Sequence record: MH133207.1
DNA length: 64,000 bases
Origin: Acinetobacter phage vB_AbaM_B9
Reading direction: 5' to 3' (one strand)
How positions within the stretch are numbered: the stretch's first letter is position 1; the number at the start of each line of letters is the position of its first letter. A program made the translations under genes and the position numbers. Below, one piece after another: positions 13,944 through 60,596 of this stretch. The notes beneath the pieces were generated by a model that was given only the letters and a program-made list of their open reading frames with translations, was not told the origin of the DNA and made no database searches.

Positions 13944-14819
13944 ATGGCAGATTTAAGAATTGCTGATGCTCCAGAAATAGCATTAGAAAATATTACAGGA
14001 AATGAAAAAATTCCTACTGGTGGTTATGGTAATTCAGCAGTCACCATTAATAATTTAGGGCAGTTTGCAAAAACTGCTTTATCTTTAGCAACAGAATCAT
14101 ATGTTTCAAATACTGTTGGTCAAAAAGAAGATAAAATGATATTAACAGGTGTAAATTTAACACCTTCATCAACATATTCTGATATTCCACAAACAAATGT
14201 CACTGTCTTAAATACGATTCATCAAGACTTATTGAATCGTATGGAGTGGATTAAAGATAATGTTGCTGTTATCACCGACCACCAAGCTCTACAGAACAGG
14301 AATGCTAGTAATACACATCCAAGCACATCAATTTCACACAACGGAACATCCAATGTTTCTATTGAAATTGAAGAGTTAAAGAATGATGTATTAACAATTA
14401 ATACAGAAACTATTCCTGAATTAAACAATACAATTGTTGGAAAACAAGATGTAATTGTCAATGATGTTAATTTAACACCGACTTCTGTTTTAAGTCCTGT
14501 ACCTTCAACCAATAACCCATCTTTAAATTCATCTCTACAAGCTCTGATGAATAGGATTGAATATTATAGAGTTGGAGTTAGGTTTACAGGAAATTATGAT
14601 TTTCCATCTGTAACAGCAGGTCAACAAGTATCAACAACAATCATCACAACAGGTTTGGTTGTTGGAGATCATGTTTCTGTCACACTCAGTGTTCCTCTAC
14701 AAGGTTGTGCAATTAGGGGTGAAGTTACCAGTTCTAATACAACAACAGTTTACTTATTCAATCCAACAGGAGCTAGTGTTGACTTAGGTTCAGCAACCAT
14801 ATCAGTTCTTAAATTATAA
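13944..14819 (+). CDS. short tail fibre paralog sharing the N-terminal anchor domain
   Basis: 291 aa. Shares IPTGGYGNSAV, LLNRMEWIKDN and NTHPSTSISH motifs with the 877-aa protein; the C-terminus is different. Confidence 0.5.
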   Translation: MADLRIADAPEIALENITGNEKIPTGGYGNSAVTINNLGQFAKTALSLATESYVSNTVGQKEDKMILTGVNLTPSSTYSDIPQTNVTVLNTIHQDLLNRMEWIKDNVAVITDHQALQNRNASNTHPSTSISHNGTSNVSIEIEELKNDVLTINTETIPELNNTIVGKQDVIVNDVNLTPTSVLSPVPSTNNPSLNSSLQALMNRIEYYRVGVRFTGNYDFPSVTAGQQVSTTIITTGLVVGDHVSVTLSVPLQGCAIRGEVTSSNTTTVYLFNPTGASVDLGSATISVLKL

Positions 14820-15053: not shown

Positions 15054-15932
15054 GTGTTTAAAGGTTTAATTTCAGAAGTAGCAAAAGATGCGGGTCGTAG
15101 TGCAGCATTAATAATTAATCAATTATTTCAATGGTATAAAGGAAGTAATTCAAAAAAGATTTACCGTACAAATCAAGAGTTACATGATGATTTGTGTGGA
15201 ATCATGTCTACAGCAACAATTCAACGTTGTAAAAAAAGATTGATTGAGAAAGGTTATATTGAAGTTTCTTTTGATAAAGGTTTGAATCGTGTAACTCACT
15301 ATTCACTTACAAAGAAAGCTTTAGAATTATTGGATAGCTCTAAAACATCTTCAGAAGCCCATAGTGAGAAAAAAGAAGGAAAAGGTAGTGATATGCCACA
15401 CACTCCTAAAACATCTCCACAACGTGCTAAAACAGGTGTTAAAAAGGGTGTTATTGCACACTCATGTGGAAATGTTAAATCAATGCAAGAATGTTTTGAA
15501 GAAGGAAGTGATAATAAGAATGCAGATCGTTCTTTAACGCTATCTGAACGACTAGCTCTTATGAAGGGAGAAAAGATTGATTTAAACAATCGTAATGAAG
15601 ATTTAGAGCAATGTTTAGATAAAAGTGGTACAAACGTACCAGACAATACTAAAACTGTCTCTACGGAGCTTACAGACGACTTAAATGAGATGTGTAATGG
15701 TAACGAAGAAGATGAATACTTAAACACTCTATCACAACAGGATTACGATGAATGTGATCTTGCTATGTTGAATGCTTTGAATAAGCAACAAGAACATTTG
15801 ACAGATGATAAGTTGACTGTTGGTCAATTATTAGGTAATATTGGTTCTGTATATAAATCAGGTGTGTCAGAAGCTAGAGAAAGAATCTATCAGATGTCAC
15901 AATTACAAAATGGTTATGTGGAGGATTATTAA
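15054..15932 (+). CDS. putative DNA-binding (winged-helix) early protein with acidic C-terminal region
   Basis: HTH-like stretch TATIQRCKKRLIEKGYIEV. GTG at 15054 sits 5 nt after AGGAGG; the track start at 15048 overlaps the RBS. Confidence 0.35.
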   Translation: MFKGLISEVAKDAGRSAALIINQLFQWYKGSNSKKIYRTNQELHDDLCGIMSTATIQRCKKRLIEKGYIEVSFDKGLNRVTHYSLTKKALELLDSSKTSSEAHSEKKEGKGSDMPHTPKTSPQRAKTGVKKGVIAHSCGNVKSMQECFEEGSDNKNADRSLTLSERLALMKGEKIDLNNRNEDLEQCLDKSGTNVPDNTKTVSTELTDDLNEMCNGNEEDEYLNTLSQQDYDECDLAMLNALNKQQEHLTDDKLTVGQLLGNIGSVYKSGVSEARERIYQMSQLQNGYVEDY

Positions 15933-31758: not shown

Positions 31759-32748
31759 ATGAAGAAGTGGCAACAAACTGCTTTAGAATATAGAAAGCAA
31801 GGATTATCATCTCGTAAGATTTGTGATAAATTAGGATGGAGTCGAACTCGTAAAAGTACGATTAACGACTTCTTCACACGTTATGATCGTGAACAACAAG
31901 CTGTAGATGCATTATTTAAATCATCTCAAGAAGAACCTAGCATTAAGATTCTTTATTTGGATTTAGAATATACATTCTCTTTCTCAGGACATTTCCAGAA
32001 TTGGGGTGTTAATATTTCCCAAGATGCTAAGATTCGTGAGAGTCATTTGTTGTCTTATGCGTATGCTTGGAATAATGGTGAGATTAAAGGTGAAGTGTTA
32101 AAAGCAGAAGCTATCCAAAACGATCTATTACGTTCTATTGTTCAGAATGATGTTAAAACAGAGATTGATTTTGACATGACGTTAAAGCTTTGGCACTTGT
32201 TAGATCAATGCGATATCGTTGTGGCTCACAATGGAAGGGGTTACGACATTAAGCAGTTAAATTCATTGTTCTTAAAATACGGTTTGTGTTTACCTTCTCC
32301 GTATAAAGTTGTTGATACTTTGGCAATTGCTAAGAAGATGTTCAAACTTCCATTTAAGAGTTTGAAATACTTAGCTCAATATTTGAATGTAACACAGAAG
32401 ATTGATAACGGTGGTAATGATTTTTGGCGTTTGGCTTCTATCGGTTATTCAGATGAAGTTTTAAATGAAATGCTCACTTATAACAAAGGTGACATTGAAA
32501 CATTGCGTGAAGTTTATTTGAAATTAAGGATGTATAATAATGATGGGGTTAATGTTGCTGCATTTGATGGTGGTGATGAGGTACGATGTCCTACTTGCTC
32601 TTCTATTGACTTATCTAAGCTAAACAAACAAGCTACGACAACACGACATCAATATGATGTTTACCGTTGTAATTATTGTCAAGCTTTAAGTCGTTCAGCG
32701 AATGTTAAAGGCGAAGCTAAATATTTGGTTCATGTGAATACGAATTAA
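31759..32748 (+). CDS. DEDDy-type 3'-5' exonuclease (DnaQ-like) with N-terminal HTH and C-terminal zinc ribbon
   Basis: Exo I YLDLEY, Exo II VVAHNGRGYD, Exo III YNKGD. C-terminal CPTC...CNYC. Confidence 0.55.
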   Translation: MKKWQQTALEYRKQGLSSRKICDKLGWSRTRKSTINDFFTRYDREQQAVDALFKSSQEEPSIKILYLDLEYTFSFSGHFQNWGVNISQDAKIRESHLLSYAYAWNNGEIKGEVLKAEAIQNDLLRSIVQNDVKTEIDFDMTLKLWHLLDQCDIVVAHNGRGYDIKQLNSLFLKYGLCLPSPYKVVDTLAIAKKMFKLPFKSLKYLAQYLNVTQKIDNGGNDFWRLASIGYSDEVLNEMLTYNKGDIETLREVYLKLRMYNNDGVNVAAFDGGDEVRCPTCSSIDLSKLNKQATTTRHQYDVYRCNYCQALSRSANVKGEAKYLVHVNTN

Positions 32749-32777
32749 CCAAACAGTTTTAAATTTAAAAATATTGA

Positions 32778-32806
32778 TTGACATACTTTTCGGAGTGTGT
32801 CATTAT
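32778..32806 (+). promoter_or_regulatory. sigma70-like promoter (TTGACA-17-CATTAT) directed at the tRNA-like element and HNH gene
   Basis: Read directly. The -10 hexamer is weak. Confidence 0.4.
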
Positions 32807-32818
32807 TTGTTTTATGAA

Positions 32819-32903
32819 GTCGGATGTACCTGCACTATTCTTCTAAAGTAGTACGTAAAAAGCAGGAAGGACGTGAGAGGTTCGATTCCTCCATCCGACG
32901 CCA
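32819..32903 (+). tRNA. tRNA-like element, candidate tRNA-Arg(UCU), non-canonical (no D-arm, long extra arm); possibly a pseudogene
   Basis: Perfect 7-bp acceptor stem GTCGGAT/ATCCGAC with discriminator G and CCA. Canonical T-arm AGAGG-TTCGATT-CCTCC. Anticodon stem-loop CTATT-CU[UCU]AA-AGTAG. Only 9 nt separate the acceptor and anticodon stems, and the extra arm is 24 nt. Confidence 0.45.
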
Positions 32904-32914
32904 ATTGGAGGTTT

Positions 32915-33346
32915 ATGAAGATTAATTTAGAATATCCTTTCACTTATGAATTTAGGGACGGTTATGTTAGAGTTTGTAGTGATGGTAGGAAGCGAATAGA
33001 TTTAGTTAGATATGATGGTACTAGAACAACACTATCGTATTCAAGATATTTAATGGGTACTGTAATTGGATATGAAATTACACCTTCGTATGAGGTAGAT
33101 CATATTGATAGGAATTGTAGTAATGATAATATAGACAATTTACAAATATTATCAGTTAAAGATCATAGAGCAAAGACATCATTAGAAAATTCAACTGGTA
33201 GGACAACAGTTAAGTTGACTTGTCCTGTCTGTGGTTGTGATTTTGAACGTGAAAAAAGACATGTTAGGGTTGATAAACCAAAATGCAGCAGGTCATGCAA
33301 TGCTAAGTATAGCCGAAATAATTCGGGTTGGTTCCCAAAGAAATAG
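32915..33346 (+). CDS. HNH endonuclease immediately downstream of the tRNA-like element
   Basis: EVDHIDRN...NLQILSVKDH and CPVCGC motifs. ATG at 32915 after GGAGG; the track start at 32873 lies inside the tRNA-like element. Confidence 0.6.
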   Translation: MKINLEYPFTYEFRDGYVRVCSDGRKRIDLVRYDGTRTTLSYSRYLMGTVIGYEITPSYEVDHIDRNCSNDNIDNLQILSVKDHRAKTSLENSTGRTTVKLTCPVCGCDFEREKRHVRVDKPKCSRSCNAKYSRNNSGWFPKK

Positions 33347-33368
33347 ATTTTAATATAGGAGAAAGAGA

Positions 33369-34058
33369 GTGACAGAAAAAATTTCAGAGATGACAGAAAC
33401 AAGTAATGTAGAATTAACACCACAACAACAATATAAAAACATTTTAGAAAAAGCACTTCAAGCAGCAATCCTGTTAAACAAGATTATTCGTGGTAAATCT
33501 GTTGAAGAATATTCAGATGAAGAGTTATCTGAAGCAATCTTTACACAATCTAATGTTGTAACCAAAGAAGAAATTATTGAATGGATTTCTAATTATGGTT
33601 TAGATACAGTTGAGGAATTGGATGGTCAAGTAGATGTAATCTATACACTATCATACTTGCATTATTTGATTGAAGAAGCTAAACGCAGAGAATTTGTTGA
33701 AATTAACTATAAACACACCAACTTGATTTTAATGTTAGGTAATGTTGTATTGTCAAATCTGTCTACCGATGATGATGGGTATTATGACACATTAGAGGAA
33801 GCTGTTGATCGAATTATTGAAAACAACATGTCTAAAGTGACAACTGATGTTGAATATTTTAAAACATGGGAATCACCAAAAGGTGAAAAATTAATTCCTA
33901 AGTCAACAGTGGTTGATGGAACACGCTATTATTTGTTGGTTAATGCTGAAGGAAAGTGTCGCAAACCAGATCACTTTGTTAGTGTTGATTTAACAGATTT
34001 AGCAGAACGTTTAGAGAAACAATGGAATGGGGTTGTAAATGGCAAAGAAGAAAACTAA
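33369..34058 (+). CDS. hypothetical acidic protein
   Basis: 229-aa ORF, GTG start after AGGAG. Confidence 0.4.
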   Translation: MTEKISEMTETSNVELTPQQQYKNILEKALQAAILLNKIIRGKSVEEYSDEELSEAIFTQSNVVTKEEIIEWISNYGLDTVEELDGQVDVIYTLSYLHYLIEEAKRREFVEINYKHTNLILMLGNVVLSNLSTDDDGYYDTLEEAVDRIIENNMSKVTTDVEYFKTWESPKGEKLIPKSTVVDGTRYYLLVNAEGKCRKPDHFVSVDLTDLAERLEKQWNGVVNGKEEN

Positions 34059-57151: not shown

Positions 57152-58450
57152 TTAAATGTTTTCTTCTTGTAGCCAATCTAAGAACAAGTCCTTCATTCTT
57201 TTAGACAAGATAGCAAGATTGATCGGTTTTCCATCTCGTATTGCAGACCTCCAAATAAATTGAAGCATTTCAGATAAAGCAAACACATCAGCATTTATTG
57301 GATATCCGTAGTCTTGTAAATAGCTAGCAACACTTTGATTCGGGTATCGGTCATAAGCATGAATAACACAAGTTTTATGTCTATAAGCATTCGTTGCTCT
57401 TGTGTTTGATGCCAACCAACAAACATTCTCAGGACACTTTTGTATCTTTAACTCTGTATCTACTAAACCGCTAGGTTTAATCTTAGCTGCTTTCGACTTA
57501 ACATCCAGATTACTTCTATTCTTTGGGAATGTATAAAGTAAATCATAACTAGAAGCTCTCCATGAGCGAGCAATAGAGAGGATATACCCTTCAATGTGTT
57601 TAATGTCTTGTGCAGACATCTTCGAATAAGCAGACACAGATAATTTTAAATCTTTCTTCCACTTCTGATTAGTTGGTGAATAAAGGTTAATTAATTTAGC
57701 TATCTCTTTCTTACTTGGTATAATTGGTGTAATCTCATCGAATACTTTATATGGAATACCCTTCAGCTTTAGAAAACTACTTAAAATATTACCTTCAAAC
57801 ATGTATGTTAAGATAATAGCTCTCTTCGATGATGTGATCAACTTAACGGGAAGCTGTGTAACAAACATATCATCTTTACGCTTACTAACATACAACATCT
57901 TGTTCTGAACATGTCTCTTAAACTTGCTATATTTATGTCTAAAATCATCAAATGCTTTATCTAAGTTGCTATCGATATCTTTACCACACCAAATTAACAT
58001 TCCATCATTTTCTTGTACACTAATCACACCAAGCTCAATTAGAGAAGTTACATCTGGTGCTGAATACGCATGATAATCGTCAATCATTGCAATCTCTTCA
58101 TCTACAACTAAAACATAATTGTGTTTCTCCATTTCACTAAAATGCTCATCTGTCATGTTTAAATATAGATTGTGTGTACATGTGATGTTAGCACCAATCC
58201 TCAATAATTCTAATAAGTGACTACCTTTTGTGTCATGGCGGTTATCTTCATCATCTCTTTTGGTTTCTGGAGCTACAAATCTAGTTAATGGACAAGCTTG
58301 TTGAATACGCCCACCGTCTTTAACTTCTTCTAGGAGTGGTGATATGTAAAAGAATTTATACATGTGATTATTCTCTTCCATCCATTTACAAATCTTAGAA
58401 GTTTTATGTGACCCCATCATGGCATCTACAATCTCTACAACATTACTCAT
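57152..58450 (-). CDS. P-loop NTPase-like protein with deviant Walker A (first gene of the - strand block)
   Basis: MMGSHKTSK (deviant Walker A), VLVVDEEIAMIDD (Walker B-like), C-terminal WRSAIRDGK. Confidence 0.35.
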   Translation of the reverse strand: MSNVVEIVDAMMGSHKTSKICKWMEENNHMYKFFYISPLLEEVKDGGRIQQACPLTRFVAPETKRDDEDNRHDTKGSHLLELLRIGANITCTHNLYLNMTDEHFSEMEKHNYVLVVDEEIAMIDDYHAYSAPDVTSLIELGVISVQENDGMLIWCGKDIDSNLDKAFDDFRHKYSKFKRHVQNKMLYVSKRKDDMFVTQLPVKLITSSKRAIILTYMFEGNILSSFLKLKGIPYKVFDEITPIIPSKKEIAKLINLYSPTNQKWKKDLKLSVSAYSKMSAQDIKHIEGYILSIARSWRASSYDLLYTFPKNRSNLDVKSKAAKIKPSGLVDTELKIQKCPENVCWLASNTRATNAYRHKTCVIHAYDRYPNQSVASYLQDYGYPINADVFALSEMLQFIWRSAIRDGKPINLAILSKRMKDLFLDWLQEENI

Positions 58451-60391: not shown

Positions 60392-60596
60392 GAACTCATA
60401 CCAAGCAGACAAGCTAAGTATAAGGGATAGAGATAAGCTCTTCGGAGTTGCTACCAAAGTTGCTGATAAATGCTTCAGTTGCCAAAAACGTAAAACTTTG
60501 CTCTACAGGCTCACAGTGTAAGACCTGGTTATCCAATTCCTAGCGTACTCAAGATTGATTGTAGGTTACTTACAAGCTAAACAATTTAAAGGAAAT

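Follow-up and report, generated by a model that had tools for sequence, protein, structure and literature searches.

An 85-nt element in the window, a 64,000-nt stretch of DNA from Acinetobacter phage vB_AbaM_B9 (sequence record MH133207.1), probably encodes a phage tRNA-Arg(UCU) that reads AGA and whose core is wired unlike that of every described cytosolic tRNA. On sequence evidence, it is a member of a widespread, unannotated family of phage arginine tRNAs, and this family appears to consist of natural tRNAs that work in bacterial cells and form no cloverleaf. An L-shape, charging by the host arginyl-tRNA synthetase (ArgRS) and decoding on the ribosome would be expected of such a molecule. 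The features of the element and its surroundings are as follows.

32778–32806, + strand: sigma-70-type promoter, with TTGACA (32778–32783), a 17-nt spacer and a TG-extended CATTAT; 10 of 12 consensus positions match.
32779–32802, no strand assigned: 10-bp inverted repeat inside the promoter, followed by a T-run; kept in the locus alignment.
32819–32903, + strand: whole putative non-cloverleaf tRNA-Arg(UCU) gene, 85 nt including the encoded CCA; covariation, and 100.9 bits with covariance model R1.
32819–32826, + strand: 5' strand of the acceptor stem, 8 nt, partner 32892–32899; all eight pairs change on both sides, 99.5% of cells paired.
32829–32833, + strand: 5' strand of the pseudoknot helix, CCTGC, partner 32862–32866, abutting the anticodon stem; three of five pairs covary, 99.6% of cells paired.
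32834–32852, + strand: anticodon arm, with a 6-bp stem (A32834–T32852 plus CTATT/AGTAG), loop CTTCTAA and anticodon TCT at 32842–32844; five of six stem pairs covary.
32853–32855, + strand: 5' strand of the extra-arm (V) helix, ACG, partner CGT at 32872–32874; two of three pairs covary.
32856–32861, + strand: A-rich connector TAAAAA; an A-rich segment is conserved in all members.
32862–32866, + strand: 3' strand of the pseudoknot helix, GCAGG, within the extra-arm loop; covariation.
32867–32871, + strand: D-loop-like segment AAGGA; GGA (32869–32871) in 48 of 49 distinct members.
32872–32874, + strand: 3' strand of the V helix, CGT; covariation.
32877–32891, + strand: T arm, with 4-bp stem GAGG/CCTC and loop TTCGATT (32881–32887); 100% of cells paired, TTCGATT in 47 of 49 members.
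32892–32903, + strand: 3' strand of the acceptor stem (32892–32899), discriminator G (32900) and CCA (32901–32903); CCA in 49 of 49 members.
32907–32911, + strand: GGAGG, ribosome-binding site of the HNH gene, starting 4 nt past the CCA.
32915–33346, + strand: free-standing HNH homing-endonuclease gene (Pfam HNH_3), 143 aa, ATG at 32915, 12 nt past the CCA.
33369–34058, + strand: downstream gene, a nucleoside triphosphate pyrophosphohydrolase by the annotation of relatives.

The extent of the element, its discriminator G and its encoded CCA lie where the initial annotation had placed them, and the anticodon arm CTATT-CTTCTAA-AGTAG is as described there. The acceptor stem, given in that annotation as 7 bp, is in fact 8 bp long, since the eighth pair, G32826–C32892, covaries across the family (GC43, AU5, UA1). 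The T-loop stands as annotated, but the 5-bp T stem does not: the would-be fifth pair is an A·C mismatch in the window element, and the true stem has 4 bp because the acceptor stem takes 8 bp. The element is thus built on 8 + 4 bp, not on the canonical 7-bp acceptor and 5-bp T stem. The absence of a D-arm hairpin between the acceptor and anticodon stems was borne out, the gap there being only 8 nt (32827–32834). The segment had been read as a 9-nt linker serving as a spacer, which does not hold, as five of its nucleotides, CCTGC, form pairs with GCAGG, which lies in the extra-arm loop.

CCTGC is the structural counterpart of D-stem positions 22–25 and GCAGG that of positions 10–13. Because the V helix crosses this other helix, the fold is a pseudoknot. 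The V helix was absent from the search model, and its pairs vary among the homologues in a compensatory manner (GC32/CG17 and CG31/GC11/UA6). The A-rich connector would line a helix groove. On geometric grounds, the GG of AAGGA could be G18 and G19, with the A that follows as a candidate for A20, an arginine determinant. Folding the window element by itself for minimum free energy gives an acceptor stem of 8 bp, the D-substitute helix in nested position, an anticodon stem of 6 bp and a T stem of 4 bp. Features of canonical tRNAs are kept and conserved family-wide, namely a 7-nt anticodon loop with U33, a TTCRANY-type T-loop, and the discriminator and CCA. The pseudoknot as a substitute for the D-stem, the 8/4 split and the existence of a large family limited to arginine AGR anticodons had been missed by the initial annotation.

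Standard tools do not recognize the element. ARAGORN was run in standard, intron, metazoan and mammalian mitochondrial, and tmRNA modes and with a lowered threshold; it reported no genes in the window, and nothing in the sub-region in standard, intron or default mitochondrial modes. Its sole call, made in mitochondrial mode at the lowered threshold, was a spurious 60-nt "TV-loop" model, with boundaries unlike those of the element, and was rejected. Searches against Rfam likewise gave no match for the element at gathering scores; the best sub-threshold match, in E-value mode, was tRNA-Sec (RF01852), at 27 bits against a cut-off of 47. Covariance model R1, which was built from homologues, scores the element at E ~1e-24, and by this measure of its sequence and pairing the element is far above chance expectation. 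Elsewhere, ARAGORN at times forces family members into mis-bounded "tRNA-Arg" calls of 93–102 nt with mismatched stems. Literature searches found no prior description of a rewired phage arginine tRNA family. A candidate structured RNA, "DNAVirus_2961", overlaps ARAGORN tRNA-Arg calls (PMC10690425) and may be the same family.

Homologues are abundant. A blastn search with the element matched 356 phage records, 277 of them near full length, and among the 120 matches listed none carried a tRNA annotation, bar one partial T-arm match. Pattern scans of viral contigs found 35 loci with the UCU loop fixed and 36, largely overlapping, with anticodon-blind patterns, and a scan of metagenomes found 44; by covariance model, all 36 anticodon-blind viral loci and all 44 metagenome loci are true members. 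When a loose pattern, GGNNGGANNTGAGRGGTTCGA, was applied to bacterial genomes, it matched ordinary tRNAs, and none of the 80 tested loci among the matches listed was a member (best score, 25 bits). Members are 85–88 nt long and are found in tRNA clusters of phages from several unrelated groups (T5-like, T4-like and jumbo); even between distant phages, their 3' halves hardly vary. One covariance-model match (L021; 30.6 bits, anticodon GUA), seemingly a rewired tRNA-Tyr, proved to be a normal type II tRNA-Tyr. Kinship with T4 species 1 and 2 (rnaC and rnaD) was also discarded: these RNAs are about 120–140 nt long, differing from the 85 nt of the element, and no T4 record is among the blastn matches listed.

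The alignment of 51 distinct homologues, taken from genomes of Acinetobacter and Vibrio phages, viral contigs and metagenome contigs, supports the pseudoknotted fold throughout. Paired bases occupy 99.0% of cells, compared with 75.7% in shuffles and 37–49% with slid partners. Changes on both sides are seen in 19 of the 26 pairs, and all five helices covary.

The full-length distinct members, 49 in number, carry the anticodon UCU (45) or CCU (4) on the rewired scaffold and no others, although the anticodon-blind patterns needed the conserved 3' half, so that divergent members with other anticodons could be missed. The restriction to arginine could also partly mirror common descent, not ongoing selection for decoding. 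C35 and U36 are present in all 49, and the discriminator is G in 30, A in nine and U in ten. The bacterial arginine identity set comprises A20, C35, U/G36 and A/G/U73 (PMC9976931), with which C35, U36 and the G/A/U discriminator agree, as would GGA if its A is the equivalent of A20. AGA makes up 43.5% of arginine codons in the window. The covariation, the scaffold limited to UCU and CCU, and the use of AGA favor one of the readings offered initially, that of an aberrant, functional tRNA-Arg(UCU) that would read AGA. A second class lacking the D hairpin has an ACG anticodon; its acceptor, anticodon and T stems covary and its candidate core helix is only 70% paired, and its core may be nested instead of pseudoknotted. 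With this class alongside the UCU and CCU members, all arginine boxes are covered.

Relatives of vB_AbaM_B9 allow the rewired gene to be compared with its canonical equivalent at one locus. In phages TaPaz and Ab3, a canonical tRNA-Arg(TCT) gene lies at the matching promoter and locus; scored with the family model, it reaches 18.9 bits, against 100.9 for the window element. Two different rewired versions occupy the shared locus, one in the window and the other in phiAB441 and MD-2021a. The whole genome of phiAB441 has no ARAGORN tRNAs and exactly one covariance-model match, and that of Vibrio phage D40 has 18 ARAGORN tRNAs, none of them for arginine, plus a rewired UCU gene. Across 87 loci, which were viewed with limited flanks (whole genomes for D40 and phiAB441) and are not phylogenetically independent, rewired and canonical forms with the same anticodon are never found together: canonical tct genes occur only beside rewired CCU, and canonical cct genes only beside rewired UCU. 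The TTGACA-17-CATTAT promoter noted at the outset is present and is kept at the corresponding locus in TaPaz, phiAB441 and Ab3. The inverted repeat within it may terminate transcription of the upstream gene or act as an operator.

The HNH reading frame and its GGAGG ribosome-binding site lie where they had been annotated, and the frame scores 26.9 bits with HNH_3 against the Pfam cut-off of 24.8; its homologues are labelled HNH or homing endonucleases in many phages. In the window, the interval from the tRNA to the HNH start holds no separate promoter. The tRNA and HNH gene form a segment that is absent at the same locus of TaPaz and Ab3, with sharp breakpoints, and homology to TaPaz restarts at ~33347, just ahead of the ribosome-binding site of the downstream gene. 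A homing-endonuclease gene adjoins the element in 28 of 85 occurrences. In 22 of these 28 it is an HNH gene, which starts 8–19 nt past the CCA and belongs to one of several unrelated HNH families, and at least five mutually dissimilar endonuclease types adjoin family members. At one locus (L015), a 380-nt HNH gene homologous to that of the window is a clean insertion beside an otherwise identical tRNA. Such presence or absence of the endonuclease beside an identical tRNA shows the tRNA gene to have been there first and the endonuclease to be the later arrival. The T4 endonuclease SegB recognizes a T-arm motif of tRNA genes, and neighboring tRNA genes are carried along (PMC2330249). The idea that the rewired gene displaced the canonical one as an HNH-resistant, cleavage-immune allele lacks support in that form, the T-arm motif read by SegB-type enzymes being still present, and stands as speculation only.

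Other readings of the element have to account for this pattern. That it is a tRNA gene killed by endonuclease damage, or the 3' remnant of a tRNA that has been retained for attachment, both of which the initial annotation had raised, is scarcely credible. Rejection by tRNA detectors and the adjoining endonuclease gene are what a dead gene or fragment might show; against this, compensatory changes are found in all five helices over 51 distinct sequences from unrelated phages, which refutes a pseudogene. The element is also full length, with both acceptor strands there, it has its own conserved promoter, and its complete, conserved structure recurs in the tRNA clusters of unrelated groups (T5-like, T4-like, jumbo), which refutes an attP-type 3' fragment. 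It is distinctly improbable that the element mainly serves the endonuclease, either by controlling HNH expression in the role of a tRNA-shaped processing signal or 5' leader, as had also been suggested, or as a conserved homing site through which endonuclease genes spread. The close and recurrent spacing of HNH starts behind the CCA (22 occurrences, several unrelated families) and the lack of an own promoter for the HNH gene in the window speak for such a role, and co-transcription is likely; the near-invariant 3' half is what a homing site would show, and the T-arm motif is the target of SegB. However, two thirds of occurrences are without an adjoining endonuclease gene, as in Vibrio D40, Gary and ME3, where the neighbors are ordinary tRNA genes, and a processing signal would require neither conservation nor covariation of the anticodon loop and stem, so that a leader or processing function would be at most secondary.

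Two further alternatives accept a tRNA-like molecule and differ over its task. It is unlikely that the element is a non-decoding tRNA mimic or decoy, which would titrate or block a factor of the host, for instance an anticodon nuclease specific for arginine tRNAs or some other defence aimed at tRNAs. Its body is radically unlike host tRNAs, yet its anticodon loop is canonical, and phage tRNAs are known to counter tRNA-cleaving defences, including PARIS (PMC11464382), retron effectors (PMC11555353) and Septu (PMC13096335). The ACG class, in completing the arginine boxes, would fit a nuclease directed against all tRNA-Arg isoacceptors. Colicin D attacks all of these isoacceptors. A decoy, however, needs no invariant CCA, covarying 8-bp acceptor, canonical T-loop and GGA together; moreover, the rewired gene replaces the sole tRNA gene of a phage group that otherwise keeps canonical tRNA-Arg(UCU), and rewired genes complement canonical arginine tRNAs anticodon by anticodon. 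As nuclease resistance is compatible with a working tRNA, the decoy idea partly complements the reading of the element as an AGA-decoding tRNA-Arg. Very improbable is an allo-tRNA-like recoder, a substrate of SerRS or another non-cognate enzyme that would put serine, or some residue other than arginine, at AGA and AGG during infection. With its 8/4 stems, extra arm and mostly G discriminator, the family recalls allo-tRNAs and tRNA-Sec, and D-armless tRNAs of metazoan mitochondria read AGR as serine. AGA is, however, the main arginine codon of the phage, and its recoding would rewrite every protein. The scaffold is also limited to YCU, as expected if the synthetase reads C35 and U36, whereas allo-tRNA anticodons number 35 of 64 (PMC7609411). 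Besides, the discriminator varies among G, A and U, the extra-arm helix is just 3–4 bp with its loop bound up in the pseudoknot, and it is canonical tRNA-Arg that is replaced in relatives.

The element shares with the canonical tRNA-Arg(UCU) of TaPaz and Ab3 its promoter, locus, anticodon, 7-nt loop with U33, TTCGA-type T-loop, discriminator G and CCA, and presumably its job as an AGA decoder for an AT-rich phage. It differs in having no D hairpin, 8/4 instead of 7/5 stems and a pseudoknot that joins the 5' linker to the loop of the extra arm, and sequence homology between the two is detectable in the T-arm only. Metazoan mitochondrial D-armless tRNA-Ser(AGN), including Ascaris tRNA-Ser(UCU), is similar in its lack of a D hairpin, its short connector between acceptor and anticodon stems and its AGR- or AGN-reading anticodon. 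Mitochondrial D-armless tRNAs are, however, shortened and flexible, without contacts between D and T elbow elements, and need co-evolved mitochondrial factors. In contrast, the phage family is full length (85–88 nt), has a canonical T-loop, a GG motif and a D-stem equivalent via the pseudoknot, and would have to serve unmodified bacterial machinery.

Bacterial tRNA-Sec (RF01852) resembles the element in that its acceptor stem is extended, its anticodon stem has 6 bp and its extra arm is long; it differs in its UCA anticodon and 6-bp D-stem hairpin. Allo-tRNAs, the 8/4 and 9/3 tRNAs of Clostridia, Proteobacteria and Acidobacteria (Mukai et al. 2017, reviewed in PMC7609411), resemble the family in the 12-bp acceptor/T domain split 8/4, the long extra arm and the failure of standard detectors to find them. 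They keep the D-arm, however, carry many anticodons, and are SerRS substrates with an anticodon-independent serine identity (PMC7609411), whereas the family described here lacks the D hairpin, is pseudoknotted, has UCU or CCU only and was found only in phage records, viral contigs and metagenome contigs. An engineered D-armless "mini HisT" in E. coli demonstrates that the lack of a D-arm does not bar a tRNA from use by a bacterial aminoacyl-tRNA synthetase, EF-Tu and the ribosome (PMC11551756). It is artificial, 62 nt long and predicted to be Y-shaped, and a pnp mutation was needed for survival, PNPase having limited the engineered tRNA (PMC11551756). An RNase might degrade a tRNA such as that of the phage. 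The HNH gene of the window, like T4 SegB and other free-standing homing endonucleases in phage tRNA clusters (PMC2330249, PMC13096335), lies beside tRNA genes, varies in presence and has its neighboring tRNA co-inherited; unlike SegB, it belongs to HNH_3 and not GIY-YIG, and the carried tRNA is of the non-cloverleaf type.

In the structure proposed here, the coaxial acceptor/T arm retains its 12 bp, split 8 + 4, together with a normal anticodon arm, T-loop and CCA. CCTGC leads from the acceptor directly to the anticodon stem, its partner GCAGG sits 3' of the anticodon arm, in the loop closed by ACG/CGT, and the resulting 5-bp substitute for the D-stem stacks on the 6-bp anticodon stem. GGA, after the relocated strand, would then be placed where G18, G19 and A20 could reach the T-loop and ArgRS. 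Transcription would proceed from the element's own sigma-70-type promoter, ahead of the HNH gene and genes of nucleotide metabolism. The tRNA and HNH segment most likely took over the place of the canonical tRNA gene through endonuclease-driven gene conversion, comparable to that of T4 SegB with its neighboring tRNA genes.

With real hesitation, though we find it plausible, we also put forward a joint claim. The family would be the first natural non-mitochondrial elongator tRNA to abandon the cloverleaf, forming a phage arginine lineage (UCU, CCU and the separate D-hairpin-less ACG class) whose D-stem is re-formed with a strand now located in the variable region. It would be charged by host ArgRS and used by unmodified bacterial ribosomes, its odd body would have been selected to escape recognition of ordinary tRNA-Arg, and it would have spread between unrelated phages by homing endonucleases. 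The recognition to be escaped could be that of a defence nuclease specific for arginine tRNAs, of an attack by the phage itself on the tRNAs of its host, or of homing endonucleases directed against canonical tRNA genes.

According to a 2024 paper, all known bacterial tRNAs are cloverleafs and natural arm-less tRNAs are found only in mitochondria (PMC11551756). The family would be a natural counter-example to this rule, present in hundreds of sequenced phages. It would also mean that phage tRNA repertoires are undercounted, Vibrio phage D40 being a case that seems to be without an arginine tRNA until the family is recognized. Such a tRNA offers a probe of the tolerance that RNase P, ArgRS, EF-Tu and the ribosome may have for a rewired core, and is a possible scaffold for orthogonal tRNAs. 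Finally, it would provide a concrete system that joins homing endonucleases, the exchange of tRNA genes from phage to phage and, possibly, evasion of tRNA-targeting defences.

The reading of window positions 32600-33500 agreed with the initial annotation on the element span, the anticodon arm, the T-loop, the discriminator G, the CCA, the promoter, the ribosome-binding site (RBS) and the HNH open reading frame (ORF). The features are:

32778-32806: promoter TTGACA-17-(TG)CATTAT, 10 of 12 consensus positions matched
32819-32903: tRNA-like element, 85 nt, read from sequence
32842-32844: anticodon TCT, in the anticodon arm CTATT-CTTCTAA-AGTAG, read from sequence
32907-32911: RBS GGAGG, read from sequence
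32915-33346: HNH ORF of 143 aa (ATG at 32915), Pfam HNH_3 above cut-off

The 3' side of the element carries the T-loop TTCGATT, a discriminator G and an encoded CCA. Standard tRNA detectors do not call the element. ARAGORN finds zero tRNAs in the whole window and makes no call on the sub-region of the element in standard, intron, tmRNA or mitochondrial modes (a lowered threshold gives a single junk call there). Nothing in Rfam matches the element at gathering scores, the top sub-threshold match being tRNA-Sec (27 bits; cut-off 47). A 10-bp inverted repeat (TGACATAC...GTGTGTCA, window 32779-32802) extends over the tRNA promoter's -35 and -10 hexamers and the stretch separating them, and a T-run follows it. 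It is kept in the related phages TaPaz, phiAB441, and Ab3, and may serve either to terminate transcription of the upstream gene or to bind a regulator.

Alignment of 28, then 51, distinct family sequences (A1, A3) revises the 7-bp acceptor and 5-bp T stems drawn initially. The acceptor and T stems measure 8 and 4 bp; acceptor pair 8 covaries (GC43, AU5, UA1), and the proposed fifth T pair is an A.C mismatch in the window. The anticodon stem comprises 6 bp once A32834-T32852 is counted. The element does lack a D hairpin, as first described, but the linker is not spare: its CCTGC core (32829-32833) pairs with GCAGG (32862-32866) in the extra-arm loop, with covariation at three of the five pairs (CG31/AU11/GC4/UA2/GU1; AU33/GC13/UA2; CG47/AU2). 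The extra-arm helix ACG/CGT (32853-32855 with 32872-32874), left out of the search model, also covaries (GC32/CG17; CG31/GC11/UA6). Because these two helices cross, the fold is a pseudoknot. Across the 51 sequences, 99.0% of cells are paired overall, compared with 75.7% in shuffles and 37-49% with partners slid by 1-3 columns; both sides change in 19 of 26 pairs, and the observed pairing values were reached by none of 500 shuffles. Minimum-free-energy folding of the single window sequence also recovers the nested helices (-24.9 kcal/mol, z = -2.3).

In normal tRNAs, positions 22-25 form the D-stem's 3' strand, lead into the anticodon stem by way of position 26 and are paired from the opposite side with positions 10-13. 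As the strand after the acceptor stem is contiguous with the anticodon stem, 32829-32833 would stand in for positions 22-25, and 32862-32866 would be equivalent to positions 10-13, relocated to the variable region. The variable region of canonical tRNAs already lies alongside the D-stem, and the rewiring would therefore cross short spatial distances. The 5-bp substitute helix on the 6-bp anticodon stem would approximate the combined length of the canonical D-stem, position 26, and anticodon stem. Directly 3' of the relocated strand is AAGGA (32867-32871); GGA is found in 48 of 49 full-length members and would sit where the T-loop-contacting G18 and G19, and A20, are expected. A20 is the main determinant for bacterial ArgRS (PMC9976931).

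The family is rated as tRNAs of undescribed architecture. Full-text literature outside subscription journals yielded no account of such a tRNA, and earlier publication is possible. Known bacterial tRNAs are all cloverleaves according to a 2024 paper, which places natural arm-less tRNAs in mitochondria only (PMC11551756), and a 2020 review of non-canonical tRNAs has no phage entries and no pseudoknotted core (PMC7609411). A 2023 catalogue listing candidate structured RNAs of viruses mentions a motif overlapping ARAGORN tRNA-Arg calls, left uninterpreted there, that may be this family.

A blastn search with the element matched 356 phage records, 277 of which cover at least 80% of the query. The majority are T5-like Vibrio phages; the others include Vibrio phage Gary, the jumbo phage ME3, and the T4-like Acinetobacter phages Maestro, AB-Navy97, and Octan. 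The element lies inside tRNA gene clusters in these genomes, and among the 120 matches listed the underlying annotation is 'none' or 'hypothetical protein' in all but one, a partial T-arm match to tRNA-Ser. The ME3 copy is 88.5% identical to that of the window, and where their acceptor and anticodon stems differ the changes are compensatory. A pattern scan with the UCU loop fixed gave 35 viral-contig loci; anticodon-blind patterns, which relied on the element's conserved 3' half, gave 36, mostly the same, and 44 metagenome loci. With the family covariance model (R1), all anticodon-blind-scan loci score 80-107 bits, compared with 59.9 bits for the divergent phiAB441 type and only 18.9 bits for the canonical tRNA-Arg of TaPaz.

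The window's phage is related to phiAB441, TaPaz, MD-2021a, Ab3, Ab5, and Ab7. The tRNA locus, behind a common promoter and with an exonuclease-like gene on one side and an annotated NTP pyrophosphohydrolase gene on the other, takes three forms. In TaPaz and Ab3 it holds a canonical 77-nt tRNA-Arg(TCT) without an endonuclease gene; in the window, the 85-nt element and the HNH gene; in phiAB441 and MD-2021a, another, divergent UCU element, also D-hairpin-less, and a NUMOD4-HNH gene whose product is unrelated to the window HNH beyond the catalytic motif. One breakpoint coincides exactly with the tRNA 5' end, and the other lies just 5' of the RBS of the next gene. The complete phiAB441 genome yields zero ARAGORN tRNAs and exactly one family-model match; Arg(UCU) at this locus, canonical or rewired, is therefore the only tRNA-type gene of the phage group.

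Two further observations concern phiAB441, the closest relative. Its NTP pyrophosphohydrolase gene, which directly follows the endonuclease gene, is split in the annotation into two pieces (L002, 2920-3111 and 3168-3608) and is a single 229-aa ORF in the window and TaPaz; a frameshift could have caused the split, or endonuclease activity could have left it as a scar. Its 43900-87975 segment (L234) is rich in endonuclease genes (HNH at 57344 and 69123, endonuclease at 60463 and 76427, record positions), and its DNA polymerase annotation is broken into several parts; this points to heavy traffic of homing endonucleases or inteins in the group.

Two anticodon-unfixed searches returned UCU in 45 and CCU in 4 of 49 full-length distinct sequences, and no others; some phages hold UCU and CCU versions in tandem. 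So narrow a set is expected if the synthetase reads the anticodon, as ArgRS does, and is the opposite of the pattern in allo-tRNAs, which SerRS charges irrespective of many anticodons (PMC7609411). All 49 members encode CCA, and their discriminators (G 30, A 9, U 10) fall in the bacterial arginine set. The whole genome of Vibrio phage D40 has 18 ARAGORN tRNAs, none for arginine, and a rewired UCU gene. Across 87 loci with 176 ARAGORN tRNAs, most with limited flanks, canonical and rewired forms of equal anticodon share a locus in none: a canonical tct gene is present only where the rewired gene is CCU, and a canonical cct gene only where it is UCU. AGA is the top arginine codon in the window ORFs (43.5% of arginine codons, 16.1 per 1000 codons), and genome G+C is 32%.

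The anticodon restriction, the 3' end, D40, the complementarity, and AGA usage, together with replacement at the TaPaz locus, make a working AGA decoder, predicted from these features to be charged and to decode, the most economical reading, in line with the aberrant tRNA-Arg(UCU) for an abundant codon suggested initially. A decoy or anti-defence mimic is possible, but would leave unexplained both the retention of every charging feature and the anticodon-by-anticodon complementarity with canonical arginine tRNAs. The odd body could have been selected for resistance to a tRNA-Arg-specific nuclease, which is compatible with a working tRNA. A serine-charged recoder is contradicted by the restricted anticodons and variable discriminator. 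A purely endonuclease-serving element is contradicted by the two thirds of members without an adjoining endonuclease gene. The tRNA pseudogene and attP 3'-fragment readings, offered in the initial annotation, are excluded by helix covariation over 51 sequences.

The window HNH gene begins 12 nt 3' of the CCA, and since no promoter is seen between the two in the window, it is probably co-transcribed with the tRNA. A homing-endonuclease gene adjoins the family tRNA in 28 of 85 occurrences, 22 of them HNH genes starting 8-19 nt 3' of the CCA, and at least five mutually dissimilar types are represented (four HNH_3 types and a SegB-like GIY-YIG). At locus L015, an HNH homologue (32% identity to the window HNH) lies immediately 5' of the tRNA; comparison with five contigs whose tRNA is identical shows it to be a clean insertion of 380 nt. 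L015 and L181 also carry an extra segment of ~800 nt from ~430 nt 3' of the tRNA (L015 1857-1941), missing in L180, L188, and L210, that is probably another mobile gene at the tRNA site. The nearest phage relatives of the window HNH are just 53-55% identical and at unrelated loci. T4 SegB, whose site includes a T-arm motif, drives inheritance of its own gene and neighbouring tRNA genes (PMC2330249), and SegB can amplify tRNA genes against tRNA-cleaving defence (PMC13096335). The window adjacency matches this known habit of free-standing homing endonucleases in tRNA clusters, and the endonuclease side of the locus is ordinary. Most likely, the endonuclease would have brought the element, whose closest known relative is the ME3 copy, into a TaPaz-like genome, displacing the canonical gene.

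Other unusual tRNAs accompany the family. D40 (L169) holds two tRNA-like sequences missed by ARAGORN and the record annotation: a 90-nt sequence (14025-14114), whose anticodon loop carries GUA and whose acceptor and D stems are separated by an extra stretch, and a 74-nt sequence (15820-15893), whose anticodon loop carries UCC. Odd ARAGORN calls in the family's tRNA clusters include tRNA(CUA) 'Pyl', tRNA(UUA) 'Stop', and apparent 4-base anticodons (tgga, acta); these may be tRNAs of a suppressor or frameshift type, or artefacts of the detector:

L008 799-873: odd call, Maestro
L025 5296-5370: odd call
L011 6822-6906: odd call
L045 354-433: odd call
L047 6314-6393: odd call
L169 13858-13935: odd call, D40

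A second D-hairpin-less tRNA-like class has anticodon ACG (arginine CGN) and 7/5 stems:

L169 16029-16111: ACG-class copy, D40
L171 301-383: ACG-class copy, PG07
L216, L219, L220, L222, L225, L229, L231: ACG-class copies

Its acceptor, anticodon, and T stems covary (alignment A4), and some copies are missing the encoded CCA. With UCU, CCU, and ACG, phages hold non-cloverleaf candidates for both arginine boxes, AGR and CGN.
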